Source: Candidatus Moanibacter sp.
GTDB taxonomy: Bacteria; Verrucomicrobiota; Verrucomicrobiia; Opitutales; UBA2987
DNA length: 64,000 bases
Direction: 5' to 3'
Assembly: GCA_965215885.1 (NCBI GenBank)
Contig: CBDCEW010000088.1
Coordinates: forward strand, 14,737 to 78,736
Positions 12,315 through 58,625 of the stretch are shown here, one piece after another (position 1 is the first letter of the stretch; each line of letters begins with the position of its first letter). The notes under the pieces are model-generated. The model was not told where the DNA came from. It did no database searches and worked only from the letters and a program-made list of their open reading frames with translations. A program made the position numbers and the translations under genes.

Positions 12315-12322
12315 AGGCTGAG

Positions 12323-12520
12323 ATGATATATAAACGCAGGGAATACTTTTCCGCCGGAACGGAGCAGGTTTGGGTTGTCGATCTAGAAAAGCAGGTGATC
12401 GAAGTGTTCTTTCCGGATTCGCGAAAGCTCATCGCCGGTTCCGGGGCGCTTGAAGGAGAGGGCATTGTCGCGGGCCTTACTCTGGACGTGGGTGCAGTTT
12501 TCAGGCCCCTGAAGCCCTGA
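12323..12520 (+). pseudogene. C-terminal remnant of a Uma2-family (DUF820) endonuclease gene
   Basis: The 65-aa ORF (REYFSAGTEQVWVVDLEKQVIEVF) matches only the C-terminal third of about 190-aa Uma2 proteins. The hppA stop lies 9 nt upstream, leaving no room for the N-terminal part. Confidence 0.55.
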
Positions 12521-12645
12521 GCTTTACACATATTGGGAACGACCTTGCGCGGGGCCTTCCCATTATAGTACATGGGTCCTCAGCGCCAATGCTGGTCATT
12601 CGTTCGCTGCTTCGCAATTTTGGCTGAGATCATCGGTGGAATGCC

Positions 12646-15952: not shown

Positions 15953-18274
15953 TCAGGATGAGGCCGGAGCCTTAGAGAGGACTTCGCGATAGCGAGTGAT
16001 ACCTTTGCTTTCAGCGAATTTCGCGAGTTTATGGGCGAATTCCCGAACATGGGAATTCTTATGTTTAGCGCCCACCTCGATGAGGTTGACGAGCTCAGGT
16101 TGTTCCCAATTCCACCCTTCACGACTATTCCGTCTGTGGTAGAGTGTTCGGAGAATCACCAGGAGTAGATCCTGGTCCGCGGAATAGGTGTTCGACACTT
16201 CGTGGAGCCGCCGTATAATCGAGGTTCGTTCGTCTTTAAGGCTGAGAAGCTCCGTGATAGTCGATCGCTTTAATGATCTCTCACCGCGGCTGAGTTGATC
16301 CGAGCTCTTATTCTGCAAATCGCGAAGGACTTCTATGAGATATGCCTGCGCCTCGTCCGGTTTTACGTCTTTTATTTCGTCCACGAGCTCAGACTCGATT
16401 TTGATCTGATATTCAGGTGGCAGTCCAACCCTCTTAATTTGTAGAAGAGCGTGCCATGGTTCGGGACGATGGGAGGATTTGATAAGTGAACCGAGTGCAT
16501 TTTCTCTCAGTTTGGGGTGTCCAGTCTGGAGAACGCCTTCCCTGAGAATAGCGATCTCCTTTTCACTAATCTCGTCACGGTCGAAAGTGTACTTCCGCAG
16601 CATCGCTTCGCGAATTTTAGGATTGGCCGAATCATAGTGTTCTAAAACGGCCTTCCTGGCGAGGTTCGGCGCTCTCCCTTGCAAACTCAAGACGGTTTCG
16701 CGAGCGACAGCTACATCGCGATCGAGCACCCAGCCAAGGTAGTCGTCGAGTTTTTCTTCGGGAGTCTGTGAGAGTATGAATTCGGCGATTTGAGGTCGAT
16801 TCGGCTCTCTCGGATTGGTGGCGATTTTCGTCAATTCAAGACGAAGGGTGTCGTCTACGAGGTGACCCCGCAGTGCGCGGAGAGCCTTGGATTTGAAGTC
16901 GGGGTTGGTCACGCGAATGAATTCCAGGATCGGTTCGTAGTCGCCGTACCAGGGATTCATAGCGAGCGCTTCCAGAATCCTGCGCTGGCTGCTCGTGGAA
17001 GCACGAGGGAGAGAATTGGTAATCCAATCTGCGAATTGCTCATGGTTTCCCTCGATAAGAAGGCTCTGCAAGGCTCCCCACACGATTAGGCTTTTCGCCC
17101 CTATCGCTTCGTCCACTTGTCCGACAAACTCATCCGGTGCGACGTATGCGAGCACCCTTGCCGTTCTTTCGTCAAATCGGCCGCTACTATTGAGGATAGT
17201 GAGATTGTCATGGGGCTGTCCCGGGAAGAGTTCGAAATCGGGGAGGGAGGCGAAACCTTCCTTAATCGCATCAATAAGAAGGCGGCGATTCTTCTCTTTT
17301 AGCCTGTCGGCTTTATCGGGAGATTTTCCCACCTTTTCTTTTACCCAAAGTGTTTCCGGAACAGGAGTTTTTGCTTCCATCAGCGAGAGGTTATCCCATG
17401 AGGTCGGCACCTCCTTGGTTCCTTCTATCTGAAATGAGACGTTGACGGACTCGGGAATGGAAGGTGGCGCCCTCCTCTTGAATTCGTTGTGTTCAAAGCT
17501 GTAGTTTGCAGTCTCCTCGTTAACACGAACTGTGAGTTTTTTCCAAGTGGCCGTGGATTCGAGGCGCCCAATGCTCGAGCCGAATCTTAACTCAAAGCGT
17601 GATTGGGTGTTCCAATTCTTTTCCAGCGCTGATCTTACCAGTTGGTTATATTCCGAAGAGGCGGGGGCCAGGATGCTCACCCTGAACCATTGCTTCGCCA
17701 AAGGTGCTCGGGCCATTTCAATAATCGGCTTAAGCTTCGTGTATTCCTTAGCGAGAGGACTGAAGACCCGATCATTGTAGGTGCGCACAAAATTTTCGGC
17801 CTCCTCTACTGGCAGTTGTCCTGTTTTCAGCTTTTCGGCCACCCAGGTGAGTTCACTCATCAGGACTTCAAGGAAGATTTTGTCCTGTCCCTCTTTCCAT
17901 CCTCTCAAGGAGGTGCCGGACTCGACTTCGCGATTTCCGAAGCGATCGTGGTATGTAGCGATAGCTTCTCGCCCCTGTCTGTATAGCTTTGCGGCGGTTT
18001 CCCGGTCATGATTCTGGAGAGATTGAATTGCCTGGCTCCATTGGACCACGGCCTCTTCCATCGCCTTGATTACTTTCTCGTCGTTCCAGGCCGGTCCATC
18101 CAAGGTGTAGTCCTCGAAGGCCCGCTCGGTCTCCTGCTTCATGTATTTGTAGAATAGAAAGTAGGCCACAAAGGTTAAAGCGATGAAGGTGAAAACGTAT
18201 TTTTTCGTGTCGATCATGATGGGAATTGATTCGAAGTAGAAGACTACTGCGATGCCTTCTTTCGCCGCAACCAA
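15953..18274 (-). CDS. Membrane-anchored alpha-helical repeat protein (HEAT-like)
   Basis: 773 aa with an N-terminal TM helix (YVFTFIALTFVAYFLFY). A more likely start is the Met at 18217. The remainder is helical-repeat rich (NPKIREAMLR, HPKLRENALGSL, NSHVREFAHKL). Confidence 0.5.
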   Translation of the reverse strand: MVAAKEGIAVVFYFESIPIMIDTKKYVFTFIALTFVAYFLFYKYMKQETERAFEDYTLDGPAWNDEKVIKAMEEAVVQWSQAIQSLQNHDRETAAKLYRQGREAIATYHDRFGNREVESGTSLRGWKEGQDKIFLEVLMSELTWVAEKLKTGQLPVEEAENFVRTYNDRVFSPLAKEYTKLKPIIEMARAPLAKQWFRVSILAPASSEYNQLVRSALEKNWNTQSRFELRFGSSIGRLESTATWKKLTVRVNEETANYSFEHNEFKRRAPPSIPESVNVSFQIEGTKEVPTSWDNLSLMEAKTPVPETLWVKEKVGKSPDKADRLKEKNRRLLIDAIKEGFASLPDFELFPGQPHDNLTILNSSGRFDERTARVLAYVAPDEFVGQVDEAIGAKSLIVWGALQSLLIEGNHEQFADWITNSLPRASTSSQRRILEALAMNPWYGDYEPILEFIRVTNPDFKSKALRALRGHLVDDTLRLELTKIATNPREPNRPQIAEFILSQTPEEKLDDYLGWVLDRDVAVARETVLSLQGRAPNLARKAVLEHYDSANPKIREAMLRKYTFDRDEISEKEIAILREGVLQTGHPKLRENALGSLIKSSHRPEPWHALLQIKRVGLPPEYQIKIESELVDEIKDVKPDEAQAYLIEVLRDLQNKSSDQLSRGERSLKRSTITELLSLKDERTSIIRRLHEVSNTYSADQDLLLVILRTLYHRRNSREGWNWEQPELVNLIEVGAKHKNSHVREFAHKLAKFAESKGITRYREVLSKAPASS

Positions 18275-18566: not shown

Positions 18567-18641
18567 GCAGGTTGTAGTCGATGGTGGACTTATTGGAGAT
18601 TCGTCAAGTTGTTTACGGCGAACCCGTCGTTACGATTACGA

Positions 18642-19352
18642 CTACGAATACGGCGGGGAGTTGCGAGTGGATCTTTTGACTGTAAATAGCCGTTTCATCC
18701 AACTGAAGGCGGAGCGGATGAGGTTAAAGAATCGCAGGGCACGGGGATTGTAGTCTTTGGTCGAGGTTAAGAGGAGGAGCCTGCAACCGGATTCGGAATA
18801 TGTGATGCCGTGCTCGCTCCCCGCTTCAGCTTGGAAAAAATCGCCTGCCTTCAGGAGACGGCCTTCCATATAGAGATCTCCTGACAATAAGAACCCTTCT
18901 TCCGGTCCCGCGTGATGATGGCGGGGGTACTCCGTGTTTGGATCGAGCTCAACGAGCATAACGGAATAGCCTCGAGTTGGCTGCAAAGAGAGTTCTTTTA
19001 TGCGAGCGCCTTTTGAAGGGAGTTCCTGCCAGTTTCCTTCGCTCTCCATCGTGAATGAGAAGCCTTTGGCGACAGACGCCTCCAGAAACTGTTCAATCCG
19101 TTCGCTCTCTGGGATCTCCGTCTCGGAAATACTGATAGACCGGAGGAGATTCTCCTTTATCTCCGGAGAGGGCGCGTGCGACGGCAAGTCGTCCGTTATG
19201 ATCAGGGAAAGGGTATCGTGAAATGAGGCCAGTTCCCGCTTTTCTTCGGAAGTGGCTCCGGACAGATAGGTTTCGAAATCCTCGAGATCGGGACCATCCA
19301 GTGCTCCAACAGCATATAGTGGAGCGAGTTCTGAGAATCTATCAGTATTCAT
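18642..19352 (-). CDS. Anti-sigma factor with C-terminal cupin domain (ChrR-like architecture, no TM segment)
   Basis: The N-terminus LAPLYAVGALDGPDLEDFETYLSG is typical of anti-sigma domains. The C-terminus YPRHHHAGPEEGFLLSGDL...GSEHG is a cupin metal-site pattern. The gene starts 13 nt after the sigma gene stop. Confidence 0.7.
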   Translation of the reverse strand: MNTDRFSELAPLYAVGALDGPDLEDFETYLSGATSEEKRELASFHDTLSLIITDDLPSHAPSPEIKENLLRSISISETEIPESERIEQFLEASVAKGFSFTMESEGNWQELPSKGARIKELSLQPTRGYSVMLVELDPNTEYPRHHHAGPEEGFLLSGDLYMEGRLLKAGDFFQAEAGSEHGITYSESGCRLLLLTSTKDYNPRALRFFNLIRSAFSWMKRLFTVKRSTRNSPPYS

Positions 19353-19364
19353 CGAGAAAGGACT

Positions 19365-20105
19365 TCAACTGTCGTCTTCCTTTTCTTCTAAGAGAATGCG
19401 GAGTTGAATCATACCGCGACGGATTCTGGCCTTGATCGTTCCGAGGGGTTGATGGAGGTCGCGGGCCACTTCGGATTGAGTAAGTCCCTTAAAGAAGGCG
19501 AGTTCAATGGCCTGTCGTTGTTCGTCCGGCAAATGGTTGAGGGACGCTCGCACGGTGAAAGCGGTTTCCATTGAAATTGCGAGATCGACCGAGCTTGCTA
19601 CAGCTCTTTCGCCAAGACCGGGTTCTAAGAGAATCTCCCGAGCGATCCGGCCCCTTCGACCCGAGGCTCGCAGAATGTCGATCGATTTGTTACGGGTTAA
19701 GGTCGAGACCCAACTCTTGGGTTTTCCGAGGTTCGAATCGTAATTTTTCGCGCCATTCCAGATTTTCAGGAATACTTCCTGAAGGACGTCTTCGGCGTCG
19801 TTCTCGTTTCTGAGAATGGAGTAAGCGATGTTGTAAACCGCACTCGAGAATCGGTTATAGAACCTCGAGAAGGCGGCTGGGCTACGATTCGCGACGGACC
19901 TGAGCAGCTCAACATCGCTCGTCTCCCCCTCTGATTCAGCGGCCTGCATTTCACGCGCGGTCGGCCATAAGTCCGGATAGTCGGAAACAAACCGACTTAC
20001 TGCAGAGAGGCGACTGAAAGCATCTTGTGATGTGGAGAGTTGCATCGGACTAAGGAATTCAGATTCCTCGAAAAGAGAACGCCCCGAAAGCCGATCCAGA
20101 TGCAA
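19365..20105 (-). CDS. ECF-type RNA polymerase sigma factor (sigma-70 family group 4)
   Basis: Region 2 is DAEDVLQEVFLKIWNGAKNYD and region 4 is LTQSEVARDLHQPLGTIKARIRRG. The true start is probably an internal Met, for example at 20045. Confidence 0.85.
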   Translation of the reverse strand: MHLDRLSGRSLFEESEFLSPMQLSTSQDAFSRLSAVSRFVSDYPDLWPTAREMQAAESEGETSDVELLRSVANRSPAAFSRFYNRFSSAVYNIAYSILRNENDAEDVLQEVFLKIWNGAKNYDSNLGKPKSWVSTLTRNKSIDILRASGRRGRIAREILLEPGLGERAVASSVDLAISMETAFTVRASLNHLPDEQRQAIELAFFKGLTQSEVARDLHQPLGTIKARIRRGMIQLRILLEEKEDDS

Positions 20106-20143
20106 TTTGGAGAAATTTGAAGCATTAGATTATTTCGAGGCAT

Positions 20144-20173
20144 GCAACTTCGAATGTGCGCCGTATATCTGAT
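20144..20173 (+). promoter_or_regulatory. Candidate ECF-type promoter GCAACTT-N17-TCTGAT facing the DUF4331 operon
   Basis: The sequence resembles the RpoE-type GGAACTT-N16/17-TCTGA consensus. It lies in the 130-nt divergent intergenic region. Confidence 0.3.
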
Positions 20174-20268
20174 GAGTAAAACGTTTGGCGATTTAGTGTG
20201 TGAGGGTAAGAGAAGTGAGAAACAAAAACGGGTAAATGTGCCAAAGGGCACCAAACAAGATAATGTTA

Positions 20269-22551
20269 ATGAAAATCATCTCCTCAAGGAAGACAAAGTG
20301 TATTTCGGTCGCAATTCTATTATGCCTCAATGGCGTAGCGCTGTTCGGCTCGAGCCATCGGGAAGCGCCTCTCATAACGACAACTCCAAAAGTGGATGGA
20401 ACGGACTTATATATGTTTACCAGTTATGAGACCGGCAGGGACAATTTTGTGACGTTGATTGCCAATTATATGCCTCTTCAGGATCCGGGTGGCGGTCCCA
20501 ATTATTTCACATTGGATGATGAGGCGGTTTATGAGATCCACATCGATAATAGCGGCGATGCAGTGGAGAATATTACTTTCCAATTTCAATTTACGAATAC
20601 GAATCGCGCGATCTCCCTGGACATCGGTGAACTATCCGTTGCGGTTCCTGTGATCAATGTAGGGGCTATCACAGCAGGCGACAATGCGTCGTTGAATGTC
20701 GATGAGACTTTCACTCTGAAATATATCTCGGGACCAAGACGAACCGGAACAGCATCTGACGTATCAAACGCTGCCTCCGGGTCTACCGTGTTTACGAAAC
20801 CGGTGGACAACATCGGAAATAAATCGATTCCCGACTACGAGAGCTACGCGGATCAGTATATTTATGAGATTGACATACCCGGATGTGCGACCGAGGGGCG
20901 CATGTTTGTCGGTCAGCGCAAAGAACCATTTGTCGTTAATCTCGGTGAGACTTTCGATCTGGTAAACTACCGGAATCCGTTCGGAGCGGTAAATGCCGCT
21001 GAAGACAGCCTTAGGGGCAAAAACATCACGTCCTTCATTCTGGAAGTGTCTAAGGATTGTCTCATGGGGAGCGGTGGTTCCGTTATCGCGGGTTGGACAA
21101 CCGCGAGCAGAATTGAAGGGGAAGATTTCTTCCAAGAATCACGACTTGGACAACCCCTTGTAAATGAAGTCGTTATCGGGCTACCCGACAAGGACTCCTT
21201 CAATGCCAGTGAGCCTAAGGACGATGGGCAGTTCGCCGATTACGTGACGCATCCAACCCTTCCTGCGATTATTGAAATTCTGTATGGGGCGGCTGGGGTG
21301 CGTGCGCCGACTCTATTTCCGAGGCAGGATCTGGTGGATGTCTTCCTGACCGGTCTGGCCGGCCTCAACGCTGACGGAGGTGTCGCCGAGTTACTCCGGT
21401 TAAATATGGATACACCGCCGGTAGCGGCGTCGGCTCAGAATAATATGGGAGTAATCGCAGGTGATAGTGCAGGTTTTCCCAATGGCCGCCGGCCTGGGGA
21501 TGATGTCGTGGACATCGCGCTACGGGTGGTAATGGGTGTTCTTCTTTCGGAGGATGATGCACCCTCCGGACAGCTCCTGTTCACGGATGGAGCCTGGATC
21601 AACGCCTCCATGTATGCCGACGAATTTCCATACTTGAACACGCCATTGGCGGGATCTCCGAATCCGGTGCCGGATGGCGGAGGATCAAACCTGCGCGTGG
21701 ACGGAGACGCTTTCTTTGTCAACGATGGGACCACTTTCCAGGGAAATACCTACAATGGATTTGAGTTGAGTGGAAGCCAGGCTTCGTTCTCGTCTGTTGG
21801 GGGCGAAATTACCCGCGTCTCATACCTTGATCCGGATGGGGATCTCATTTTTGTGGAATTCGGAAGTGAAGATCCAGGAACGACGCTGACGGTTAACCTT
21901 GCCAACGCACAGGAAGATGTGGCGTCGCCATATAACCAGCCCGACGTAACCTATACCCAAGGTTTGGCCTCATTTACAATCAACAATCCAACCGACCTGA
22001 CATTCTTCTCAATATTCTCCCTGGGTAATGATTCCGATCGGGTGGATCTCACGCTGATTAATGATGACACATTCACGGGAAACGTGGATGGCATAGCGGA
22101 TGTAAAGCTGCTATCGGTACTGGGTGATGAAGGCGGCAGTAGTGAAATTGCTGGAATTAATGCCGCAAATGCAAACTTCATAGACTCATCCGGGATAATA
22201 GGCATCGACGCGGAAGATGTCGCGGTGACCGACTTCCTTTTCATAGGTGATCTTACCCGCTCGGACGACGCCCGACCCCGGATTCGTGTGAGCGCGGACT
22301 CAACCATCGATGAGATTCGCATTTCCGGGGGCGATTTGGCGGAGGCGAGAGGAAGCCGCCAAATCGATACGAACGGTGTCGTCTATGCGTGCCCGTTTAA
22401 TGCTGCTGATGGGCAGCGCTCGATTAGCGATAGGCCACTTCGAGAAGATCTGGGGGATGGCGCTTTGCGCGCGGTGACCGACACATTCGCCGAAGGGGTG
22501 AATTTCTTCTTCATAACCAACGGTCAAACAGGAGGGGTTTCCGATGATTAG
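20269..22551 (+). CDS. Secreted DUF4331-family protein with about 270-aa C-terminal extension
   Basis: The ORF track lists 20236-22551. The signal peptide MKIISSRKTKCISVAILLCLNGVALFG is followed by SSHREAPLITTTPKVDGTDLYMF, the hallmark DUF4331 N-terminus. Confidence 0.75.
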   Translation: MKIISSRKTKCISVAILLCLNGVALFGSSHREAPLITTTPKVDGTDLYMFTSYETGRDNFVTLIANYMPLQDPGGGPNYFTLDDEAVYEIHIDNSGDAVENITFQFQFTNTNRAISLDIGELSVAVPVINVGAITAGDNASLNVDETFTLKYISGPRRTGTASDVSNAASGSTVFTKPVDNIGNKSIPDYESYADQYIYEIDIPGCATEGRMFVGQRKEPFVVNLGETFDLVNYRNPFGAVNAAEDSLRGKNITSFILEVSKDCLMGSGGSVIAGWTTASRIEGEDFFQESRLGQPLVNEVVIGLPDKDSFNASEPKDDGQFADYVTHPTLPAIIEILYGAAGVRAPTLFPRQDLVDVFLTGLAGLNADGGVAELLRLNMDTPPVAASAQNNMGVIAGDSAGFPNGRRPGDDVVDIALRVVMGVLLSEDDAPSGQLLFTDGAWINASMYADEFPYLNTPLAGSPNPVPDGGGSNLRVDGDAFFVNDGTTFQGNTYNGFELSGSQASFSSVGGEITRVSYLDPDGDLIFVEFGSEDPGTTLTVNLANAQEDVASPYNQPDVTYTQGLASFTINNPTDLTFFSIFSLGNDSDRVDLTLINDDTFTGNVDGIADVKLLSVLGDEGGSSEIAGINAANANFIDSSGIIGIDAEDVAVTDFLFIGDLTRSDDARPRIRVSADSTIDEIRISGGDLAEARGSRQIDTNGVVYACPFNAADGQRSISDRPLREDLGDGALRAVTDTFAEGVNFFFITNGQTGGVSDD

Positions 22552-22627
22552 GTCAGAAATGGTAATGAGAAACTATTCAGGAATGAAGCCGAATTTGAAA
22601 ATGAACACATCAGGATCGATTAGAAAC

Positions 22628-24037
22628 ATGAAAATTAGAATCCTTCTTCAGACATTGCTCGCCGGTACGCTAATTCATACGCTGGCCGTGACTGGATCGA
22701 AGCTAAATGCATCCAGTCATCGTGAAGCTCCGCTAATCACGAAGTCTCCCAAGGTCGATGGTACCGACTTCTACATGTTCAGCAGCTATGAGACGGGACG
22801 GGAGAATTTCGTTACTCTCATCGCAAACTACATTCCGCTGCAGGATCCGGGTGGAGGCCCGAATTACTTCACCCTCGCTTCTGATGCCGCCTATGAGATC
22901 CATATCGATAATGACGGCGATGCGATCGAGGATATGACATTCCAGTTTCAGGCTACGAATACGAATCGCAACATCTCCCTTGAAATCGGTGCTCCGGGTG
23001 AGACGAAAATGATGCCGGTCCCGGTGATCAACGTAGGAGCGATTACGGCGTCGGACAATGCTTCCCTCAATGTCGATGAAACCTATACGCTCAATATCAT
23101 CCGAGGTCCCCGTCGCACGGGCACGGTGGAGAGTGTGACTAACGCCGCGGATGGGTCGAGTGTCTTCACGAAACCGGTTGATAATGTTGGAAACAAATCG
23201 CTGCCCGACTACGAATCCTACGCAGATTCCTATATGTATTCCGTCAATATTCCGGGATGTTCCGAAGTGGGTAGGGTATTTGTCGGCCAGCGGAAAGACC
23301 CTTTTGTTGTCAACCTCGGTGAGACGTTTGACTTGATTAACTACAGCGATCCGCTCGGCGACGTTGATCGCGGGCAGGACACTCTGGCAGGAAAGAACGT
23401 GACATCATTTATTCTCGAGGTAGCCAACGCTTGTCTTGTTTCACAGAATTCGATCATTGCGGGTTGGACGACTGCCAGCCGAATCGAGGATGGAGCGTTC
23501 ACGCAGGTTTCGCGCCTCGGACAGCCCCTGGTCAATGAGGTTGTAATCGGAGTTCCCGATAAGGACGCCTTCAACGGCAGCGAGCCGATGGATGATGGAC
23601 AGTTTGCCAATTACGTCACCAATCCCACACTCTCGGCTATCATCGAGATATTGTTTTCGGGGGCCGGTGTTCAGGCGCCGACATCGTTACCACGCAATGA
23701 TCTCGTCGAGGTCTTCCTTACCGGATTGACCGATTTGAACGCGGACGGAAGTGTTGCTGAAGTGCTTCGTCTGAATACCGATACCGCGCCCGCAGCGGCC
23801 TCCTCCCAGAATAATATGGGAGTGATCGGCGGTGATGTCGCCGGATTTCCGAACGGGCGTCGTCCGGGAGATGACGTCGTCGACATTGCGCTCCGAGTAG
23901 TGATGGGGGTCCTGCTCTCGGCCGAAGACGCCCCCTCGGGTCAACTGCCTTTTACAGATGGCGCTTTCGTCAATGCGGATATGTTTGGGGAGACATTTCC
24001 CTATCTCAATTCTCCATTGCCCGGTTCGCCGCAGTGA
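22628..24037 (+). CDS. Secreted DUF4331-family protein (tandem paralogue)
   Basis: The ORF track lists 22544-24037. The signal peptide MKIRILLQTLLAGTLIHTLA is followed by SSHREAPLITKSPKVDGTDFYMF. It is highly similar to the upstream gene over about 470 aa. Confidence 0.75.
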   Translation: MKIRILLQTLLAGTLIHTLAVTGSKLNASSHREAPLITKSPKVDGTDFYMFSSYETGRENFVTLIANYIPLQDPGGGPNYFTLASDAAYEIHIDNDGDAIEDMTFQFQATNTNRNISLEIGAPGETKMMPVPVINVGAITASDNASLNVDETYTLNIIRGPRRTGTVESVTNAADGSSVFTKPVDNVGNKSLPDYESYADSYMYSVNIPGCSEVGRVFVGQRKDPFVVNLGETFDLINYSDPLGDVDRGQDTLAGKNVTSFILEVANACLVSQNSIIAGWTTASRIEDGAFTQVSRLGQPLVNEVVIGVPDKDAFNGSEPMDDGQFANYVTNPTLSAIIEILFSGAGVQAPTSLPRNDLVEVFLTGLTDLNADGSVAEVLRLNTDTAPAAASSQNNMGVIGGDVAGFPNGRRPGDDVVDIALRVVMGVLLSAEDAPSGQLPFTDGAFVNADMFGETFPYLNSPLPGSPQ

Positions 24038-24265
24038 AGGAGAGTGATTACCTACAGACACTGGAACAGAGTAGAGCGGCGAATAGGAAAGGGCGGATGC
24101 AATCAGCTCTTACTATTCGCCGCGTCTCTTGGTAATCCAGTAAGTAAGAACGACCAGGTAAGCCGAGACATTCCGGCATCCTTCCCTGGAGGACGAACCC
24201 ACCACGCCCCTCCTTCTTCTCAAGGCTTCGCCGATAGTTACCGGGCACTTTCCCAGGAGTGCCAA

Positions 24266-24353
24266 CCCACCCCTGGCCCCTCCCAGGAGGGGATCTTTTC
24301 ACTTCGGAACTCTTTGTTCAGGTTCCCCTCCTGTGGAGGGGTCAGGGGTGGGT
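24266..24353. repeat. Inverted-repeat element in the DUF4331-TPR intergenic spacer
   Basis: cccacccctggcccctcc (24266-24283) pairs with ggaggggtcaggggtggg (24336-24353). There are also internal hairpins cccctcccaggagggg and cccctcctgtggagggg. Confidence 0.7.
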
Positions 24354-25380
24354 CCTTAACAGGCCAGTTTTCGCATTCAAGCAGGGTTAAACACTCGCGA
24401 GTGAACTCGCTATGCCCTACGGCAGAGAGATTACTGATTAGAATCTCCTCTATTCTGCCCGGCCTGCTTATCATCCTTTTTCCTGGAGATTTATTGAGTG
24501 AACCTTATCTCCCGGCGGATGACAGTGTGGTTTTGGAGCAGCTCTCCGGTGCCAGTAAATCTTCTGGCGAAGCCGGTGTGTTGAAAGAATTGCGGGCTCG
24601 TTTGCGGGAGAACCCCGAGCATCTCGGCTGGGCTTCCGAGTTGGCTCAGCTCTACATAATCAAGGGCCGTCGTGATTCCGATCCACGGTATTTGGGGTTC
24701 GCCCAGGCGGCGCTGCTCCCATGGTGGGAATTGCCGAATCCTCCCGTTCCAATCCTCGTGTTGCGCGCCACCATCCGGCAGAGCGATCACCGATTCGAGA
24801 GCGCTCTAGCCGATCTCTCGCTGGCCCTCAAGCACGAGCCCGATAATGTGCAGGCGCTTTTGACAAGAGCGACAATTCTACAGGTACAAGGAAATTACCG
24901 TGAAGCCAGGAATGCTTGTCTGCCCCTTTTCCGGGTCGCGAATCAGCTGGTTGCAGTGACTTGTGCGAGTAGTATTGGCAGTCTGATCGGCGAAGCCGAA
25001 AAATGCTATGATTTGCTGAATCGCACTCTATCAGGTTTTGGGAATGCCTCTGTCGAGGAGAGAGTGTGGGCGCTGACTCTCCTGGCGGAAATAGCGGCTC
25101 GACTCGGTCGGTCAGAAGAGGCAGAAGAGCATTTCCACGACGCGCTCGCCCTTAACCATCGCGACAGCTACCTGTTTGGCGCATACGCGGACTTTCTTCT
25201 CGACGAAGGGCGATCGACTGAAGTGTTGAGTCTCCTGCGAAACGAAATTCGCGCGGATGGTCTATTTCTGAGATATACCCTCGCGGAAGAAAATGTTGAA
25301 TCCGAAGAGGAATTAATCACGCGGGATATCGAATCGCTGGGTGCCCGCTTCGAGGCAAGTCGTCATCGAGGATCCAATTT

Positions 25381-27756
25381 CAGAACTCGCTATCATGCGG
25401 GTTGGCGGGCAGGGGGCAATCGCAGATACAATTCCCGGCTTTTAAGAGCTAAAGAAAACGGTAGGCTTCATCTTCGAACCATCAAATTCGAAGAAAAATG
25501 GAGAAACCTACCGTCAAAGAAGAGACCTTCTTACAGTGCATCCTTGGAGTGGACAAGGGTAATCCCTCGATCACGGTCTATCGGGATCTGAGGAAAGGCA
25601 AACTGCACGTCTATTACGGGCATGAGCTTTTTGAAGTCGTAGAGGACGATCGGGAGCAAGTTGAATTCAAGCTATTGGAGGGGCGCCTCTACAATGCGGG
25701 GGTTGAAGAAAGGGCGCTTAGAGAAGCAATTTGAGGTTGACCCCAAAACGATGAAGCGGTGGGGGGAGGCGCTTCAAAGCGGAGATGCCGAGACCTTAGC
25801 GCGAGTGCTGGCGGGACGCAGCGCTCATCGCAAATTGACGAGGGAAATCCGGAGTTTTGTGCGGGTGCGCTTCGGGCAGATCTATGGGGAGAGTCGGTAT
25901 GGCTACAGCAAGAAGATACGGGGGGAGATCGAGGAGGTGTTCGGAGTTAACCTCAGTGGGGAAACTTTGCGCCCTGTCTTTAAGGAGCTTAAAGAGGCCC
26001 GGGCAAAGGAGGCCGAAGCCGAGAGGGCGCAAAATCGGGGAGACTCCCTGGGATTGCCCGGAGGACTCGGGGAGGGACGAACAGGAGCAAGAAGCAGAAA
26101 ATAGCCCCGAAAGCGAAGGGGACAATCGCAAGGGGTCTCCCGATTTTTCGAGGGAGAGATCCGAAGCGGTGCAATGGTATCGGCACCTGGGAGTACTTCT
26201 GTTCAGTGCCGCGCTCAGAGAAGTCGCTCAGATTGATCGCGAAGAGGGCTGGCTTTTGAAACAATGGGTGGCTTGCGGGTTGTTGGCCGCGGTCAATATC
26301 GAGCAGAGCAAACTGCTCGATCTCGAAGACCTGCAAAAACTCATCGGGCGAGTCCTGTATACCCCCTATCTGCAACGCCAAAGCCTTAGCGCCCTGGCCG
26401 ATGAAGGGCTTTTAAGAGAGATCCTCAGAGTGAACGCGAGGGGCCTGAATGCTTCGGATGAAGAGAGCTTTTATTATGATCCGCACACCAAACATTACAC
26501 CGGAATGAGCAAGGTGCTGGCGGGATGGTGTCCGGGTATCCGTCTGGCCGACAAAGCGCTCCACAGCGATTTTATTCATACCCTCAAGGGCTATCCGGTC
26601 TATTTTGCGAGTACTGACAACTATGAGGATATAAGGGAACGGTTTATCCCCAACTGCGAAGCGATGCTCGAGCTGGTGCAGTTGCCGGCTGATAAGAAGG
26701 TGAGCATTTACGTGGACCGGGCGATCGCCGCGGAGTGGTTTTACGAAGCCATCGTGGAGCATCCTCAACTCGAAATCATTACCTGGGAAAAAGGTTACAA
26801 GGCCAGCGCCCAGCCCCTCCAACGGATCGACGGGCAGTTGCGCCTGCAGCGCGCGCGCAACCATGCCGAAGATCTCCAGGAGTATCATCTTCGCTATCAG
26901 CGGGGCCCCTGGAAGAAAAATCCTCAACTGGTGCAGTGGATCGTGGAGGCGACCAATCCAAAAAATCGAACCATTACCGTGAGCATCATGGCGACCGATC
27001 AGCAGGCCCGAAATGAAGAGGTAATCAAAGGGATGTTCAGTCGCTGGATTCAGGAGAATGACTTCAAATACCTCGATAAGCACTTTGGGATTAATCAGAT
27101 CACCTCTTATCGCACCGTCCACTACAAGCGATTAGCCCAACACCTTGAGGACAAGCAGGAGAAAAGCGGTGCCGCCAAAGCCCTCCTGAAGCAAAAACAG
27201 CAATGCACCGAAGAATTGAAAAGACTGCTCCTGGCCGAGCATGCCCACCCGGGCAAAAGCGCCTCAAGGGGCGAAAAGATCCGTCGACTCGATCAGGCCC
27301 TCAAAGCCCTCCAACTCGAACTGGAGCAAATCGACACCGAATGCTCGAGGCTGCAGCGCCTCATTGATGAAAACTATGTCCGCCTGGACACCGCTAACAA
27401 GTCCCTCATGGATGCCTTGAAAATCTTCGCCCGTAACAGCTTCTACAAGCAGCTCGAACCCTTTAAAGCTCGCTACAACAACTATCGTGACGACCACGAT
27501 CTGTTTCGCAATTTGACTCACTGTGACGGCGTTCTTATAGAGAGGGGCTGTGCGGTCGAAGCGCATTTATTCCCCACCGCAACTTATCCCCCTCGGGTGC
27601 AGGCGGTGGTGCTTGAGTATCTGCAAACTCTCAATCAGAAGCCCTTACTGATGCCCGACGGTTCAGGCCGAAGAATCATCTTCCGACTGGGCAAAAAATC
27701 GGGATTTAAACTTGCGATTGCATAGTGCCTTTAGAGGGGCAATATAGTGAGGTCTG
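25381..27756 (+). mobile_element. Insertion sequence (about 2.38 kb, family not assigned) with imperfect terminal IRs and a 5-bp AATTT target duplication
   Basis: The left end cagaactcgctat matches the reverse complement of the right end, cagacctcactat. AATTT occurs at 25376-25380 and again at 27757-27761. Removing the IS and one AATTT copy restores the TPR frame. Confidence 0.8.
25498..27725 (+). CDS. IS transposase, spread over three overlapping frames (25498-25734, 25661-26104, 25857-27725)
   Basis: The main ORF is 622 aa (FYYDPHTKHYTGMSKVLAGW, WIQENDFKYLDKHFGINQI, C-terminal coiled-coil). Two short upstream ORFs overlap it in the other two frames. The family was not recognised with confidence. 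Confidence 0.6.
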
Positions 27757-28001
27757 AATTTACACGGACGTTCGGAGGCCCGTTACCGGCTGCATCTGCG
27801 GAACGATCCTGGTGGGGCCCTCGAAATAGCCGTGCGCAACTGGCGAATTCAAAAGGAGCCACAGGACGCGCGCATTCTCCTGGAGTCGGCGCTGGCAGCC
27901 GGTGACATTGATGCCGCTGATCCCGTGGTGCGTTGGATTTCCGCCAATCGGTGGGAGGATGTCCGGTTGGAGAATCTAGTGAAAGAGCTCGAAAGTAAAC
28001 T

Positions 28002-29129
28002 GTGAAGAAGACTTCTCTGGTAATATGCCTTTTCTTCGGCTTGGCATACGCGGAGATTGGAGCACACAAGTTGAGCGATAGCTATCTCAACATCAAGGTA
28101 GAGGAGGACGTTATTTCAGGGCAGTGGGACCTGGCGCTACGGGATTTGGAGTACTCAATCGGTCTGGACGCCAATGGAGACAGTGAAATCACCTGGGGTG
28201 AATTGCGCGCCAGCCATCGGGTACTGGAAGATTATTTGCTTTCCAGAATCGTTTTGAGTTTCGACGACGAGGGGTGCGCACTTAGAGTCACTGAACACCT
28301 GGTTGACTACCATACGGATGGCGCTTACGCGGTGGTTAGATTTGAAGGGACGGCGCCCCCGCATTCGAAAACTCTTGAAGTGGGATATGGCTTCCTATTC
28401 GACCTCGATCCCCTGCATCGCGGTCTGGCAAAGATCGAATATGGAGGTTTGGTTCGGACAGCCATATTCAGTCCTGCTGAAACAACACAGCAGTATGCAT
28501 TTGGGCATATATCTCGTTGGCAGCAGTTCCTCGCCTTTGCGAAGGAGGGGATTCACCACATTATGATCGGATTTGATCATGTTCTTTTTCTGATCGCGCT
28601 CCTCCTGCCGGCAGTGTTGTATAGAGAAGAGGGAAAGTGGGTGGCGGTAACAAGGTGTGCCCCGGCGCTTATCAGCTTGGCAAAAATCGTTACAGCGTTT
28701 ACTATAGCGCACTCCATCACTCTTACTTTGGCGGTTCTCGAAGTAGTCAGTTTACCCGCGCGTTTCGTTGAGTCAGTCGTCGCTGCTTCCGTCCTTCTCG
28801 CCGCCCTCAATAATCTGCGTCCAGTGGTAAGAGAGGGAACTTGGGTAGTGGCGTTTGTCTTCGGACTCATTCACGGTTTCGGATTCGCAAGTGTCCTCGC
28901 TGATATCGGGTTGATTTCGAAAAATCTCGTTCTATCCCTGGTGGGATTTAACTGCGGGGTCGAACTTGGGCAATTAGCGATTGTAGGTCTGTTTATACCG
29001 GCAGCTTTTCTGTCCCGAAAATCCGGAATCTACCAGAAATCTGCCCTAATGGGCGGATCCGCATTCATCGCCGCGATTTCGATGATCTGGATGGCGGAGA
29101 GGATTCTTGGAATTACGGTGATAACGTGA
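28002..29129 (+). CDS. HupE/UreJ-family membrane protein with N-terminal periplasmic domain
   Basis: 375 aa with a signal peptide and a domain of about 170 aa. It then has a six-TM core with HHIMIGFDHVLFLIALLL, TIAHSITL and GLIHGFGFA. Its GTG start overlaps the TPR stop (cTGTGA). Confidence 0.8.
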   Translation: MKKTSLVICLFFGLAYAEIGAHKLSDSYLNIKVEEDVISGQWDLALRDLEYSIGLDANGDSEITWGELRASHRVLEDYLLSRIVLSFDDEGCALRVTEHLVDYHTDGAYAVVRFEGTAPPHSKTLEVGYGFLFDLDPLHRGLAKIEYGGLVRTAIFSPAETTQQYAFGHISRWQQFLAFAKEGIHHIMIGFDHVLFLIALLLPAVLYREEGKWVAVTRCAPALISLAKIVTAFTIAHSITLTLAVLEVVSLPARFVESVVAASVLLAALNNLRPVVREGTWVVAFVFGLIHGFGFASVLADIGLISKNLVLSLVGFNCGVELGQLAIVGLFIPAAFLSRKSGIYQKSALMGGSAFIAAISMIWMAERILGITVIT

Positions 29130-29175
29130 AATTGCTCTACGCTCGCAGCCAAACTGGAAGGCGCTTCAACGCTGA

Positions 29176-29644
29176 AGAAAATTGAACAGAAGCAAACCCC
29201 TTCGACGGGCTCAGGGCAGGAGAGAGAAACGGAGAGGAAGAGGGGAGATTTCTCACGCAAAGCCGCAAAGACGCAAAGGGGAGAGAGGAAACCCCTGCAC
29301 GGACTCCGCAGTTCCATGGATGGGCACGGATGAGGGAATGACCCCACGGATTCGAGGGCAACTCGGATCTGCTGTACCGCAGACTCTGCGAGATTGGGGG
29401 CAAAGGGATCGAGTCTACTGAAGAGAATCCAAGGAGAATGTGTGAGAGTGGTCCTTTCGTTTTAAGCTCAGCGAGGCGCAATGGAATCAGCTCGAATACC
29501 CGTTTGGGTTGTAGGACTGCGATCGCGCGGGATGATCCTGGAGCGACTTATCCGCTTGGCTCATCCCGCGCGAGCGCGGTCCTACAATCTGGCGGCCATC
29601 AATGCCGCTAAACGTCTCCGATGAGGATTGGGTGGATAACCGCT
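29176..29644. repeat. Repeat island: family C (GAAAATTGAACAGAAG..CCCTTCGACGGGCTCAGGGCAGG..CGCAAAGACGCAAAGG) plus family E copy (29483-29644)
   Basis: Family C aligns with 36536-36650 and 39808-39835. Family E aligns with 18414-18566. Confidence 0.7.
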
Positions 29645-30670: not shown

Positions 30671-31696
30671 CTACCCGAAGACATCTCTTCGTAATTCCCG
30701 CAACACCATCAGTCCTTCCCAGTCACTCCCTTTCATCGGTCGAGGTCCCGTTCTTCGCTTGCCGCCAAACTGCTCGCGAAACTCTGTGTAAATACCATGC
30801 ACATACTCACGCGACCCCAAGACTGCTCCGTCCGTAAAATACCTTACCCGGCACCTCAGAGCTGCCGCTACTGGCAGCTTTCCCCCCTTCTCCATCACTG
30901 CTCTCCACTGCTCCTCCCTCATCATAGCTGATCCCGGCCCTTTCCCGGGCGCTGCCGTCGCTCCCTTGCGGTAGAGCAGCTTGCGATATTCTCTTGCTGC
31001 CGTGATCCACCTAATTTGCCTCTCCTCCGGCCTCCGCAACGCTACGCAGATCCCTCCCCGCGCTCTCGTTGCTCCTCCCATCGCCTCTCCATACCCGCTC
31101 CAGCGATAGTCCTTCGGGTCCTCTACCAGCTTCGCCCGTACCGGGTTCAAGTCAATGTAGGCCGCTACGATCCGCATGGCCGCTTCGCTTCCCTCCACCA
31201 AGGTGCTCTTGAAGCGCTCACTCCACAACGTCCCCACCCTCCCGTGGTTGCGGTTATACCAGATCGAAAAACGCTGCTTCAGGCTCTTCATATACTCCGA
31301 CACATCGTGCATCCGTCCCAATAGCTGCCGTCGTATCACTTCCCTCTCCTCGCCTCCTTTTGCCAGCTCCATCTCCATCACCTTTGCCTCGGCCTGCTGA
31401 TACTTTGTGGGCTTCGGATACAATACCCGATACCGCCGCATCAACTCCGAATCACTCATTTCTACCCCGTCCCTGTCAGGTACCCCCAACAGCACATGAA
31501 AATGTGTACTCATAATGCAGTAGGTCAATATCTCCACTCCGCTGAAGTCCGCCACCTGCCACAGCTGCTTTCTTAAAACCTCCCGGGCGAACCCTTCGAT
31601 CAACCGCTCCTTGTTTACTATACGGGTCATGCAGTGATACACCGCCCGTCTTCCTGACACTTTTATCCTTCGCTTTCTCATCCCGCCAATATGCAT
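30671..31696 (-). CDS. HUH/Y1 transposase-like protein (IS200-like, REP-associated tyrosine transposase type)
   Basis: The ORF track extends to 31867, but Met 31696 or 31681 avoids overlap with acyP. It has the HUH motif STHFHVLLGVP and the Tyr helix AAYIDLNPVRAKLVEDPKDYRWSGY. A long C-terminal extension ends RYFTDGAVLGSREYV. Confidence 0.75.
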   Translation of the reverse strand: MHIGGMRKRRIKVSGRRAVYHCMTRIVNKERLIEGFAREVLRKQLWQVADFSGVEILTYCIMSTHFHVLLGVPDRDGVEMSDSELMRRYRVLYPKPTKYQQAEAKVMEMELAKGGEEREVIRRQLLGRMHDVSEYMKSLKQRFSIWYNRNHGRVGTLWSERFKSTLVEGSEAAMRIVAAYIDLNPVRAKLVEDPKDYRWSGYGEAMGGATRARGGICVALRRPEERQIRWITAAREYRKLLYRKGATAAPGKGPGSAMMREEQWRAVMEKGGKLPVAAALRCRVRYFTDGAVLGSREYVHGIYTEFREQFGGKRRTGPRPMKGSDWEGLMVLRELRRDVFG

Positions 31697-31795
31697 ATTT
31701 TTCGGGTTATGTCCAGTATATAAATACCTGTCCCTTATAAGGGAGCCAGAATGGGCTGGCCAAGGGTAAGAAAATGGGCAATCTCTGAGGAGGAA

Positions 31796-32074
31796 ATGGA
31801 TGAAGCAGTTTTCCATATGGAGGTGCAATTTTCGGGTCGGGTGCAGGGGATAGGATTTCGGTATCATACATTACATATAGCCAAAGAATATGAAGTTTCG
31901 GGATATGTGACGAATCTGGCGGATGGACGTGTAAGGGTGGAGGCGGAGGGATTGGAGGCGGAGGTGAAGGCTTTCAAAAAAGAGATCGAAACGCAGATGG
32001 AAGCGTTCATAAGGCAGGTGGAAATAAAGACGCAAAACAGGCCCCGATCCTTTTCGGGTTTTACGATCCGATAG
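31796..32074 (+). CDS. acyP: Acylphosphatase
   Basis: VQFSGRVQGIGFRYHT and GYVTNLADGRVRVEAEG are the acylphosphatase signatures. The start at 31796 or 31817 is preferred over the ORF-track start at 31751. Confidence 0.8.
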   Translation: MDEAVFHMEVQFSGRVQGIGFRYHTLHIAKEYEVSGYVTNLADGRVRVEAEGLEAEVKAFKKEIETQMEAFIRQVEIKTQNRPRSFSGFTIR

Positions 32075-33026: not shown

Positions 33027-34510
33027 TCCCGCTGAGCGCATTTGCGTTAACCTAAGGAGAAGAAACAAGAGAGGAAATCAAGTCGAGAACGCTTTTCATA
33101 GGTGCAGTGTTTGGGGATTTGTTTGAGCCATCGGGGATGATCTGATCTTTGGGAATGTGAGAGAGGATGAAGAAGTAGGGAGCAAAGAAGAGTAGGAGAA
33201 TTTAAGGATACTCAGAGGAGAGGACAAACTGGTATTCGTGTCTAAGGGGACCATAGACGAAGTTGAGTAAGTGGGTAATGAGGATGAGACGGGCGTAGAT
33301 AAGAAGCTCAACCTGGTAGGGAGTAGTCTCTTTGACCTGACCGAGATTAAGATGTTGCTTAAAGGCCTTAAAGATTTCGATGCGCCAGCGAAGCCCGTAA
33401 AAGCTCAGAATCTGCGATGATGGAGGTTTGTAATAAAGATTAGCTGGTGCGCTGGTATATCGAAGTCTATTGTGGGATGCTCGCGGCGGCGTTTATGGGC
33501 CACCTTCTGAGGGAGTTTGACGGCGATCAGACGAACCGGAAGCTTGGCTTTTTTACCCACCCGAACGGGCATATCGAGAAGCTTTTGGCCACGTAAAAGT
33601 TTGCGTAGATCGAGCTCTTCATCGCCTTCGTTGGCTAAAAGGCAAGTGCCGGTTTTCAAACGACTCACAAAGAAGCAGCCGCGCTGATCGAGTTGCTTAA
33701 AGACATCGAGGACAAAATAGCCTAAGTCGCGCAGGATCAAGTCGTTGGGTTGGGCGAGAGCGAGAATGTCTTTGGAAGCATGATCGTTTTTTCGGAAGCT
33801 ACTGAGGCTGAATCAACGAAGGATTCATTCAGATCGTAATAGGCCTGAATCTTCAGTTGATGGAGCCTGTCTGATTGGACGCTCCGGGGAAGAAGGGGGC
33901 CAGGACCTTAGGGCCAATCGATGTCGGCAATGAGAATCAAAGCTCCTCATCATTTGGAACAGTCTGCCCACAGGCCCATAAGCTTTAAGTTCTAAAAGCC
34001 TCAGGAGCACTAAGGAGCACTTTTGGACCGCTTGTCATGGTGCGGTTGGCTAAGAATCCAATAAGCTCGGCTTCTTTGCCAAGGGACAAGGCCCCCTTAG
34101 AAGCCATCGCCAGCAAAGCCAAAACAAAGTTCAGAGGGGAGATCTTGCGCGATTTCCTCTCTCTAAAACCACTCTGTTTAGCGAGGGCTGTGAGGTTCAA
34201 CTTACGGAAGGTTTGACGGATACAATCAGCTTTTTTTATACTTTGCATCCGAAGGATAAATCCTATATATGAACGAATGTACAGTATAAAATGCTGCCAA
34301 AGTGAAAAAAAATGGGGTAGACGGAGTAGAGAAGATAACCCGGCCAAAAGTCGCTCAACTGCGAATTTCCTCACCGCTGTGGTCAAGCGAACAAATGGAG
34401 TGGAACCTCGAGGATAGAGACACCCTCATACTCCGCCGCAAAATACCTCGCAAGTCTTTGAATCTGACTAAGTTGCGAAAATAAGGTTTACGCGTATGCG
34501 CTGAGCGGGA
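33027..34510 (-). mobile_element. Decayed copy of the IS4-like element (transposase gene broken by indels)
   Basis: It is collinear with 58626-60255 and has the same terminal IRs (tcccgctgagcgcatttgcgttaacc ... ggtttacgcgtatgcgctgagcggga). It is about 146 bp shorter. The transposase is fragmented into ORFs 33405-33740, 33825-34010 and 33985-34386. CTTCG occurs at both junctions. Confidence 0.85.
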
Positions 34511-34690
34511 CTTCGAGGGACGAGTCGGAGGATGCAAGAGAGTGGGGTGGACGGTATCGTTCTCGACGATCGACTACGATTACGACGACCAGTTGCGATT
34601 GGATATTATTCGCAAATTTTGGGAGGGCGCTTTGTGTTTATATTGTGCAAAAGGTTGCTTTCGGGAATGAGGATATTCATTTTGTGATAT

Positions 34691-58579: not shown

Positions 58580-58625
58580 TGATTGATTTAGCTTCCAGCT
58601 CCGAATTAGGTTTCAACCCGTTGGG

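Follow-up and report, generated by a model that had tools for sequence, protein, structure and literature searches.

A DUF4331, TPR and HupE/UreJ-2 operon with its own ECF-type promoter, conserved across phyla: a candidate system for periplasmic copper or nickel capture

The locus considered here lies at 18642-29129 of a 64,000-nucleotide (nt) stretch of DNA from the verrucomicrobial Candidatus Moanibacter sp. (GenBank assembly GCA_965215885.1, contig CBDCEW010000088.1, positions 14,737 to 78,736), the whole of which is termed the window. In it, genes for an extracytoplasmic function (ECF) sigma factor and its anti-sigma factor are divergent from genes for two DUF4331 paralogues, a tetratricopeptide repeat (TPR) protein and a HupE_UreJ_2 permease, and these last form an operon that is conserved, with its own promoter, across phyla. 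With the chances judged about even, the locus may be read as a copy of a widespread and previously undescribed operon for the periplasmic capture and import of a transition metal, most likely Cu(II) and/or Ni(II). The argument draws on synteny, promoter conservation, domain architecture, a fold match to a copper-bound domain and motif conservation, all of which are observed directly. An insertion sequence (IS) interrupts the operon of this genome, and an annotation with four intact genes would be mistaken.

The gene list is based on an open reading frame (ORF) table and a Pfam scan of the window, with likely true starts taken from gene calls in close relatives and from the sequence itself; lengths are in amino acids (aa) for proteins.

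18642..19352 (-): soluble anti-sigma factor, 236 aa; aa 1-73 sigma-binding, C-terminal cupin with ligands HHH-AGP-E ... H
19365..20045 (-): ECF sigma factor, SigK-like, 226 aa; Sigma70_r2 and r4_2; ATG at 20045 as in relatives
20139..20167 (+): ECF-type promoter; -35 GGCATGC, 16-nt spacer, -10 CGTATA
20269..22551 (+): DUF4331 paralogue A, 760 aa; ATG at 20269, signal peptide, SSHREAP N-terminus, DUF4331, C-terminal extension
22628..24037 (+): DUF4331 paralogue B, 469 aa; ATG at 22628, signal peptide ending ...LNA before SSHREAP
24038..24400: variable non-coding spacer; GC-rich hairpin at 24277-24292, IS hot spot in relatives
24401..25380 (+): TPR gene, 5′ fragment; GTG start, signal peptide, TPR repeats (TPR_19, TPR_1 and TPR_2 matches)
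25381..27756 (+): insertion sequence, 2,376 bp; imperfect terminal inverted repeats, 5-bp target duplication AATTT
27762..28005 (+): TPR gene, 3′ fragment, continuing the TPR protein; its TGA stop overlaps the HupE GTG
28002..29129 (+): HupE_UreJ_2 permease, 375 aa; PF13795 at E 3.9e-45

The genes and domains named in a preliminary description of this DNA (ECF sigma, cupin anti-sigma, two DUF4331 proteins, TPR and HupE_UreJ_2) are all found again in the ORF table and by Pfam, and it is the geometry that needs adjusting. The sigma gene does precede the anti-sigma gene on the minus strand, but at a distance of 12 nt and not 13. The intergenic gap of about 130 nt is that of the longest ORFs, the longest sigma ORF reaching a TTG at 20105; with the starts used in relatives (20045 and 20269) it is 223 nt. 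The four genes of the block are present but not contiguous, an IS lying inside the TPR gene. The overlap of the HupE GTG with the TPR stop is there, as GTGA at 28002-28005, but it does not couple HupE to a whole TPR gene; any translational coupling can apply here only to the truncated 3′ fragment.

Conservation of the gene neighbourhood

A scan of one genome per species gave at least 596 loci, from which 80 species-level loci were kept and probed with the window's own proteins; 68 of these have at least 3.5 kb downstream and are informative for synteny, and 54 have both flanks and are informative for the sigma gene. Co-occurrence of DUF4331, TPR and HupE/UreJ genes in other genomes, on which the preliminary description had let its case depend, is evident in 50 of the 68, where DUF4331, TPR and HupE_UreJ_2 follow one another in that order on one strand, and in many loci the TPR and HupE coding regions overlap or abut. 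The 80 loci come from at least six phyla, with DUF4331 identity of 52-67%, and cover Verrucomicrobiota, Planctomycetota, Acidobacteriota, Beta- and Gammaproteobacteria, a cyanobacterium and Nitrospiraceae. The notion that these are chance neighbours or mis-annotated genes making up no functional module, to which the interruption of the block here and its splitting in some relatives might lend colour, is effectively refuted by such preservation of order and strand over several phyla, by the close spacing of TPR and HupE and by the fixed-spacing promoter described below.

An ECF sigma gene lies within about 5 kb of DUF4331 in 29 of the 54 loci with both flanks. De novo clustering of neighbours brought out an RskA_C-type anti-sigma (24 loci) and a TonB-dependent receptor (14 loci) as recurrent partners, and no hydrogenase or urease genes were found adjoining HupE among the clustered neighbours. 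The receptor heads the operon in Oxalobacteraceae and some other Proteobacteria; in a Duganella locus (L018) the genes for the sigma and its RskA anti-sigma are divergent from the promoter motif, which is followed by TonB-dependent receptor, DUF4331, TPR and HupE. Its subtype was not revealed by PDB sequence comparison, which gave no match, or by the siderophore, haem and PqqU models, all of which were below threshold. The earlier proposal of a self-contained envelope module, controlled by an ECF sigma and possibly metal-related, is supported by the cross-phylum synteny, the conserved promoter and the HupE fold match, and no match of its proteins to a well-characterized family of different function was found.

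One locus (L003) has a gene call of 452 aa (11531-12889), downstream of DUF4331, that joins DUF4198, a secreted Ni-binding protein with an N-terminal histidine (His1; PMC12537917), to an ECF sigma (r2/r4), with an RskA_C anti-sigma gene next to it. Be it a true fusion or two genes merged in calling, it ties DUF4331 loci a second time to Ni/Cu-type N-terminal-His proteins.

The promoter

The promoter motif was found de novo by k-mer enrichment upstream of DUF4331, without assuming the motif proposed earlier, and then by a two-block scan followed by a position weight matrix (PWM). The enriched k-mers were TGCATC, GCATCC, TGAATC and CGTATA. TG[C/A]ATCC-N16-CGTA is present in 42 of 83 loci against 1.26 expected from shuffles, the spacer being nearly always 16 nt, and the PWM finds 48 sites upstream of DUF4331. 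In Duganella-type loci the sites are ahead of the TonB receptor that heads the operon. The motif accompanies RskA-type loci, cupin-type loci and loci with no visible sigma gene alike.

The single best and only strong PWM match on both strands of the 64 kb window is at 20136-20171, a promoter site far beyond chance, with its -35 element (GGCATGC) at 20139-20145 and its -10 element (CGTATA) at 20162-20167. All four close relatives have the consensus -35 TGCATCC, and the window has two derived changes at positions otherwise fixed in the consensus. GCAACTT-N17-TCTGAT, the promoter earlier placed at 20144-20173, is thus in the right position but has the wrong boundaries, being about 5 nt out of register with the conserved elements. 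As to autoregulation of the sigma gene, the window has no further PWM site on its sigma side, and a site upstream of the sigma gene occurs in 4 loci only.

One sigma-binding scaffold, two putative sensors

The best NCBIfam models for the sigma factor are PRK12519 (161 bits, cut-off 222) and SigK PRK09646 (147 bits, cut-off 226), both short of their cut-offs, and the protein has no cysteine. Its anti-sigma was said to lack a membrane segment and to end in a cupin, and both features are borne out: the maximum 19-residue Kyte-Doolittle value is 0.48, with no transmembrane segment found, and Pfam Cupin_7 matches at E 3.7e-15 (56.1 bits, cut-off 27). The cupin ligand pattern HxHxxxE...H is kept in the cupin-type anti-sigmas of gammaproteobacterial loci.

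The other half of the anti-sigma has a different affinity. It has a weak RskA_N match (E 0.0037), there is no Pfam match to RskA_C anywhere in the protein, and BLASTP against the Duganella RskA gave no match; phmmer, however, aligns aa 1-73 with the N-terminal ends of RskA_C-type anti-sigmas from loci L003 and L063. RskA_C anti-sigmas are present in 19 of the 29 sigma-linked DUF4331 loci. Because of the N-terminal homology, one sigma-binding scaffold appears, from the alignments, to bear either a periplasmic RskA_C sensor or a cytoplasmic cupin with metal ligands. SigK proteins without a cysteine pair tend to have atypical anti-sigmas (PMC7509140), a trend that the cysteine-free sigma of the window and its unusual partner fit.

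The preliminary description called the anti-sigma ChrR-like. This is right for the cupin but not for the rest, the zinc-binding HxxxCxxC being absent from the N-terminal sigma-binding domain (the only cysteine is in the cupin half) and the ChrR family models being far below cut-off (TIGR02451, 29.3 against 124.5 bits; NF051881, 32.6 against 300 bits). The same comparison makes it improbable that the locus is a ChrR-type switch for singlet oxygen or photo-oxidative conditions, with the operon part of an oxidative-stress regulon and having no specific metal role. A soluble architecture with C-terminal Cupin_7 does match ChrR, and the -35 TGCATCC and -10 CGTA presumably resemble the TGATCC/CGTA-type promoters of the RpoE-ChrR group. 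Against this, quite apart from the model scores and the missing HxxxCxxC, it is SigK models that come nearest to the sigma, the operon and its promoter are in most loci accompanied by an RskA_C anti-sigma that spans the membrane and not by a cupin protein, and photolyase, cyclopropane-fatty-acid synthase and other genes of the singlet-oxygen regulon do not recur nearby.

The permease and its periplasmic domain

HupE has a signal peptide (1-21), a periplasmic domain (approximately 22-170) that starts with His22, and a helical membrane domain. The last matches PF13795 over aa 179-340 with 153.8 bits (cut-off 24.5), while the classical family PF04955 scores 18.5 bits, under its cut-off of 23. The predicted cleavage is between A21 and H22 (HKPSDSYL), with conservation of the pair at 90% or more among 45 locus homologues and H22 present in every one of 62 database homologues. 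Conserved in the periplasmic domain are D48, D56, E67, D136 and H139. The membrane part has H186-IMIGF-D192-H193 (H186-x3-G-x-D192-H193), of which G190, D192 and H193 are invariant, together with conserved H237, H291 and E321. HX5DH (HxxxGxDH) is the metal signature of HupE/UreJ proteins.

The AlphaFold (AF2) model of HupE has a pLDDT of 82.4 and a beta-sandwich at residues 26-166. Foldseek ranks first a Cu-bound Ang-1 domain, PDB 9gce (E 5.8e-6, probability 1.00, target-normalised template modelling (TM) score 0.63), and next the periplasmic zinc proteins ZrgA and PA4063 (E 5e-5 to 1e-3, TM approximately 0.6). By architecture and modelled fold the periplasmic domain appears anglerase-like; it is not detectably Ang-1 by sequence. 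9gce is the copper-bound RbAng-1a domain of a HupE/UreJ-2 permease, with Kd values of 74 nM for Cu2+ and 220 nM for Ni2+ (Franco Cairo et al., Nat Commun 2025, PMC12537917). In that work His1 anglerase domains are proposed to feed the permease to which they are fused, and HupE/UreJ proteins are taken, citing Brito et al. 2010, as known nickel permeases; DUF4331, TPR and sigma go without mention in its text, and DUF4331 occurs only twice, in the neighbour tables (PMC12537917).

DUF4331 and its predicted N-terminus

Both paralogues match Pfam PF14224 along its whole profile (1-421 of 421), A at E 1e-135 (453.7 bits) and B at E 1.1e-139 (466.8 bits), the cut-off being 27 bits. DUF4331-B has more than 8000 homologues in 90% clusters and about 5,000 clusters at 50% identity. 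With dN/dS of 0.06-0.07 for A and 0.09-0.10 for B, the genes are under strong purifying selection.

The most consistent feature is at the predicted processing site. A/SSHREAP (slash, predicted cleavage) is found in 76 of 82 homologues and Ser-Ser-His in 81 of the 82, following the signal peptide, and the histidine of this triplet is the sole invariant one of DUF4331. Divergent members retain the motif as SSH[RSG][ED]AP. With cleavage as predicted the mature protein would have histidine at position 3 and a residue other than proline at position 2, which is the criterion for an amino-terminal Cu(II)/Ni(II) (ATCUN) site; X-X-His at a free N-terminus is the classical motif of this kind. In P0308, P0323 and similar divergent members Ser-Ser-His comes after a basic site (ISPR/SSHSEAPG, SSKR/SSHSEAPG) and not after Ala-X-Ala, and propeptide processing, perhaps in eukaryotic members, may be behind these KR and PR boundaries. 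Because the triplet persists where KR or PR stands in place of Ala-X-Ala, the comparison suggests that the free Ser-Ser-His N-terminus is itself what is conserved.

DUF4331-A alone has a C-terminal extension of about 290 aa (aa ~471-760), which has no Pfam match. Gene calls in relatives often break DUF4331-A up (554+169 aa or 327+305+145 aa), reflecting either frameshifts in the extension or long-read assembly errors.

A pathway for metal capture and import, and what weighs against it

In the pathway envisaged, a dedicated SigK-like ECF sigma would be held by its anti-sigma, in the window a soluble protein whose cytoplasmic cupin has a full His/His/Glu/His ligand set, and elsewhere a membrane-spanning RskA_C protein, with the cupin or RskA_C domain tuning sigma activity to metal status. 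Once freed, the sigma would read the TG[C/A]ATCC-N16-CGTA promoter before DUF4331. DUF4331 would be exported, and its mature Ser-Ser-His N-terminus, a putative X-X-His site of Cu/Ni type, would capture Cu(II) or Ni(II) in the periplasm, where present a TonB-dependent receptor perhaps bringing the metal across the outer membrane. The secreted TPR protein may be an adaptor on which DUF4331 docks, the His1 periplasmic domain of HupE would take the metal, and the HX5DH permease would import it. The identity of the metal, the direction of its transport, the order of hand-off, the role given to TPR and the logic of sensing are inferred.

A bolder version is put forward more tentatively, as a possibility less likely than the general reading above. 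DUF4331 would then be a new and very widespread family of periplasmic Cu/Ni-binding proteins acting through Ser-Ser-His, and together with a TPR adaptor, the HupE/UreJ-2 permease with its His1 'anglerase' domain and, in Proteobacteria, a TonB receptor, would make up an unrecognised trans-envelope pathway of Cu/Ni acquisition under a SigK-type ECF sigma, with the anti-sigma sensor swapped between RskA_C and cupin.

Several points count against a role in metal capture and import. About a quarter of the informative loci have no TPR and HupE genes beside DUF4331. The HupE periplasmic domain, whether as a single sequence or as a 62-sequence profile, gave no match to the 9gce sequence at E<=10, and identity in the fold match is 14%. 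An Rfam scan of the window and 7 diverse loci gave nothing at threshold save one tRNA, and so no metal riboswitch in either; Fur, Zur and NikR boxes were not searched for. Cleavage exactly before Ser-Ser-His is predicted, and X-X-His sites hold Cu(II) very tightly and are slow to give it up, a difficulty for a relay. The AF2 model of DUF4331-B is of moderate quality (pLDDT 71.7), its conserved motifs, including SSHREAP, being in low-confidence segments with no metal site visible. A full-text literature search found no publication or experiment on DUF4331 (PF14224, IPR025566), a DUF4331 profile had no match among PDB sequences, and Foldseek found nothing meaningful with the DUF4331-B model (best E 0.019, TM < 0.15). 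Lastly, DUF4331 has 470 aa and keeps 52-67% identity from phylum to phylum, features more in keeping with an enzyme or complex binding protein than with a simple metal shuttle.

This last point leads to the main rival. DUF4331 could be a secreted enzyme or ligand binder whose substrate is something other than a free metal ion, perhaps a metallophore, an organic nutrient or an envelope component, with TPR as a chaperone or docking protein and HupE importing the product or handling a metal cofactor of the enzyme. Besides the cross-phylum identity and low dN/dS, the many invariant Asp, Asn, Gly, Pro and Arg blocks (GGPNYF, VGQRKDPFVVNLGETFDL, PLVNEVVIG, DKDxFN, GFPNGRRPGDDVVD) resemble an elaborate active or binding site, there is an acidic DNxGD loop like a Ca site, and only one histidine is invariant. 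TonB-dependent receptors, linked in 12-14 loci, usually carry chelates and not free ions. However, no sequence or fold match to any enzyme was obtained, the invariant Ser-Ser-His at a processing boundary resembles known amino-terminal metal sites, and the partner permease is from a family characterized for metal ions, so that this alternative is regarded as unlikely, though it is the foremost of the competing ones.

Somewhat less likely again is an operon for metal stress or detoxification, in which the sigma would be activated by excess Cu or Ni, or by oxidative or envelope stress, DUF4331 would buffer periplasmic metal and HupE_UreJ_2 would redistribute it. ECF sigma/anti-sigma pairs typically respond to stress, the NCBIfam model closest to the anti-sigma, weak as the match is, is described as a cadmium-, peroxide- and UV-responsive ChrR, and the tightness of Cu(II) binding by X-X-His that is troublesome for a relay would suit sequestration. 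The related DUF6702 has been termed a 'metal sequesterase' (PMC12537917). On the other hand, TonB-dependent receptors in the same operon point to import, HupE/UreJ proteins are importers (known nickel permeases; PMC12537917), and genes for efflux pumps, multicopper oxidases or CopA-type proteins do not recur among the clustered locus neighbours. Capture and import of Cu(II) and/or Ni(II) is the reading preferred here.

An interrupted copy in an IS-rich lineage

The preliminary description overlooked an IS that splits the TPR gene, disclosed by inverted repeats, an AATTT duplication and the empty site of a relative. The interval from the end of the TPR ORF (25591) to the HupE start (28002) holds a 622-aa ORF (25857-27725) with a weak transposase match, inside the 25381-27756 element; inverted repeats bracket it and AATTT direct repeats are at 25376-25380 and 27757-27761. 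Removal of 25381-27761 in silico gives a single in-frame TPR ORF with its TGA overlapping the HupE GTG as GTGA. The relative L004, approximately 91% identical in nucleotides over the operon, has an uninterrupted TPR gene of 399 aa, and by BLAST window segments 24453-25380 and 27757-29208 map to contiguous L004 sequence with an overlap of exactly 5 nt. From this empty site, the 5-nt overlap and the restored ORF, the insertion is real and recent.

As to its type, the IS has a weak Transposase_29 match only, with no NCBIfam match and no plasmid match, and no other copies of 25381-27756 are present in the window or in any relative locus. Upstream of the 622-aa ORF, and in the other two frames, overlapping ORFs at 25498-25734 and 25661-26104 resemble N-terminal parts of transposase, which would point to two programmed frameshifts or else to a transposase in decay. 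That TPR had lost its start codon was considered and rejected, as an in-frame GTG at 24401 yields a normal signal peptide.

The operon is uninterrupted in the close relatives L004 and L089. In L088 a different IS, of DDE type, is in the spacer between DUF4331-B and TPR, as it is in L085, and in L087 plus L085/L086 the operon is split in two beside this IS. A second IS, of DDE_Tnp_1 type, has two copies in the window (33027-34511 and 58625-60255, with an ORF at 58646-59965 on the minus strand), one of them fragmented, and these are 81-92% identical to the IS directly upstream of TPR in L085/L086 and L088. Insertion sequences are plentiful in this lineage, the DUF4331-B/TPR spacer attracts them recurrently and the locus has been hit repeatedly.

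The operon in this genome is probably non-functional or strongly impaired, because the IS splits TPR, 2.4 kb of foreign DNA part HupE from the promoter and the -35 element has two derived mismatches. Pseudogenisation of long standing was considered and rejected on the DUF4331 dN/dS of 0.06-0.10, and since the coding sequences have no sign of long-term relaxation the disruption in the window is probably recent.

Synonymous divergence (dS) from L004 and L089 across 18588-24133 and its flanks peaks at 0.37-0.42 over the DUF4331 genes, is intermediate for sigma, anti-sigma and TPR and is 0.04-0.06 in HupE and the flanking genes, a profile suggesting a tract of recombination or an imported allele with DUF4331 at its centre. 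The segment 24134-24452, in the spacer before TPR, cannot be aligned with L004, and many other loci also have a gap of 250-380 nt at this position. Its hairpin at 24277-24292, CCCCTCCCAGGAGGGG, is followed by a T-rich run and may represent a repeat element, or else an internal attenuator governing the ratio of DUF4331 to TPR-HupE expression. Terminator and sigma-70 promoter scans were at chance level. Of the genes to either side, a 773-aa ORF at 15953-18274 (-), beside the anti-sigma gene, has no Pfam match and is absent from L004, where a Transposase_mut gene sits, and a 398-aa ORF at 30671-31867 (-), downstream of the operon, has as its counterpart in relatives a gene call of Y1_Tnp type (REP-associated tyrosine transposase-like).

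Significance

Dedicated routes by which bacteria import copper, and those for nickel other than in hydrogenase and urease clusters, are not yet well defined. It was 2025 before the HupE/UreJ-2 anglerase permeases were characterized, with their partners and regulation set down as 'proteins of unknown function' (PMC12537917). Of the components described here, the ECF sigma/anti-sigma pair and the anglerase-type HupE/UreJ-2 permease are of known kinds, and their assembly with DUF4331, TPR, a promoter, alternative anti-sigma sensors and an optional TonB receptor is in no paper found by literature search. The locus and its 80 relatives tie one clade of anglerase-type permeases to DUF4331, TPR, sometimes a TonB receptor, and an ECF sigma with a defined promoter, and offer a natural example of a single anti-sigma scaffold on which sensor domains are swapped. 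They also turn an unstudied and strongly conserved secreted family, DUF4331, into a question that can be put to experiment in culturable hosts such as Duganella, Massilia and Marinobacter algicola.

Comparison with known systems

With the anglerase-HupE/UreJ-2 proteins (Ang-1 and Ang-2) the window permease has in common a signal peptide, His1, an Ig-like beta-sandwich, a flexible linker and the PF13795 membrane domain. Its candidate ligands are D48, D56, E67, D136 and H139, whereas RbAng-1a has Asn41, and its context of DUF4331, TPR, ECF sigma and sometimes a TonB receptor is undescribed for the anglerase permeases. The classical HupE/UreJ proteins (PF04955), such as HupE of Rhizobium leguminosarum, are likewise multi-helix inner-membrane proteins with HX5DH in the first membrane helix and a mature N-terminal histidine, but the window protein falls below the PF04955 cut-off, has an additional periplasmic domain of about 150 aa and is not encoded beside hydrogenase or urease genes. 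ZrgA of Vibrio cholerae and PA4063 of Pseudomonas aeruginosa share the beta-sandwich fold of the HupE periplasmic domain, at 11-15% identity, yet are free-standing soluble proteins and not fused to a permease. They are encoded in zinc-uptake loci under the control of Zur and not of an ECF sigma.

On the regulatory side, the SigK-RskA pairs (ECF18/ECF19) of Mycobacterium tuberculosis and Yersinia (PMC7509140, PMC7826278) have an anti-sigma N-terminus homologous to that of the window, and SigK-type models rank top for the window sigma, though below their cut-offs. In contrast to them, the window has a cytoplasmic cupin in place of RskA_C and its helix, a sigma without the redox cysteine pair, and DUF4331-TPR-HupE in place of mpt70/mpt83. 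RpoE-ChrR (ECF11) also has a soluble anti-sigma with a C-terminal Cupin_7 and a full set of metal ligands, and differs in the HxxxCxxC and family-model scores that the window anti-sigma lacks, in the type of the partner sigma and in the regulon. Finally, the near-invariant Ser-Ser-His at the predicted mature N-terminus gives DUF4331 a likeness, on sequence grounds, to proteins with ATCUN (X-X-His) sites and to N-terminal His-brace proteins such as CopC, YcnI and the lytic polysaccharide monooxygenases (LPMOs), while its fold is unrelated to theirs and it is much larger than known ATCUN carriers.

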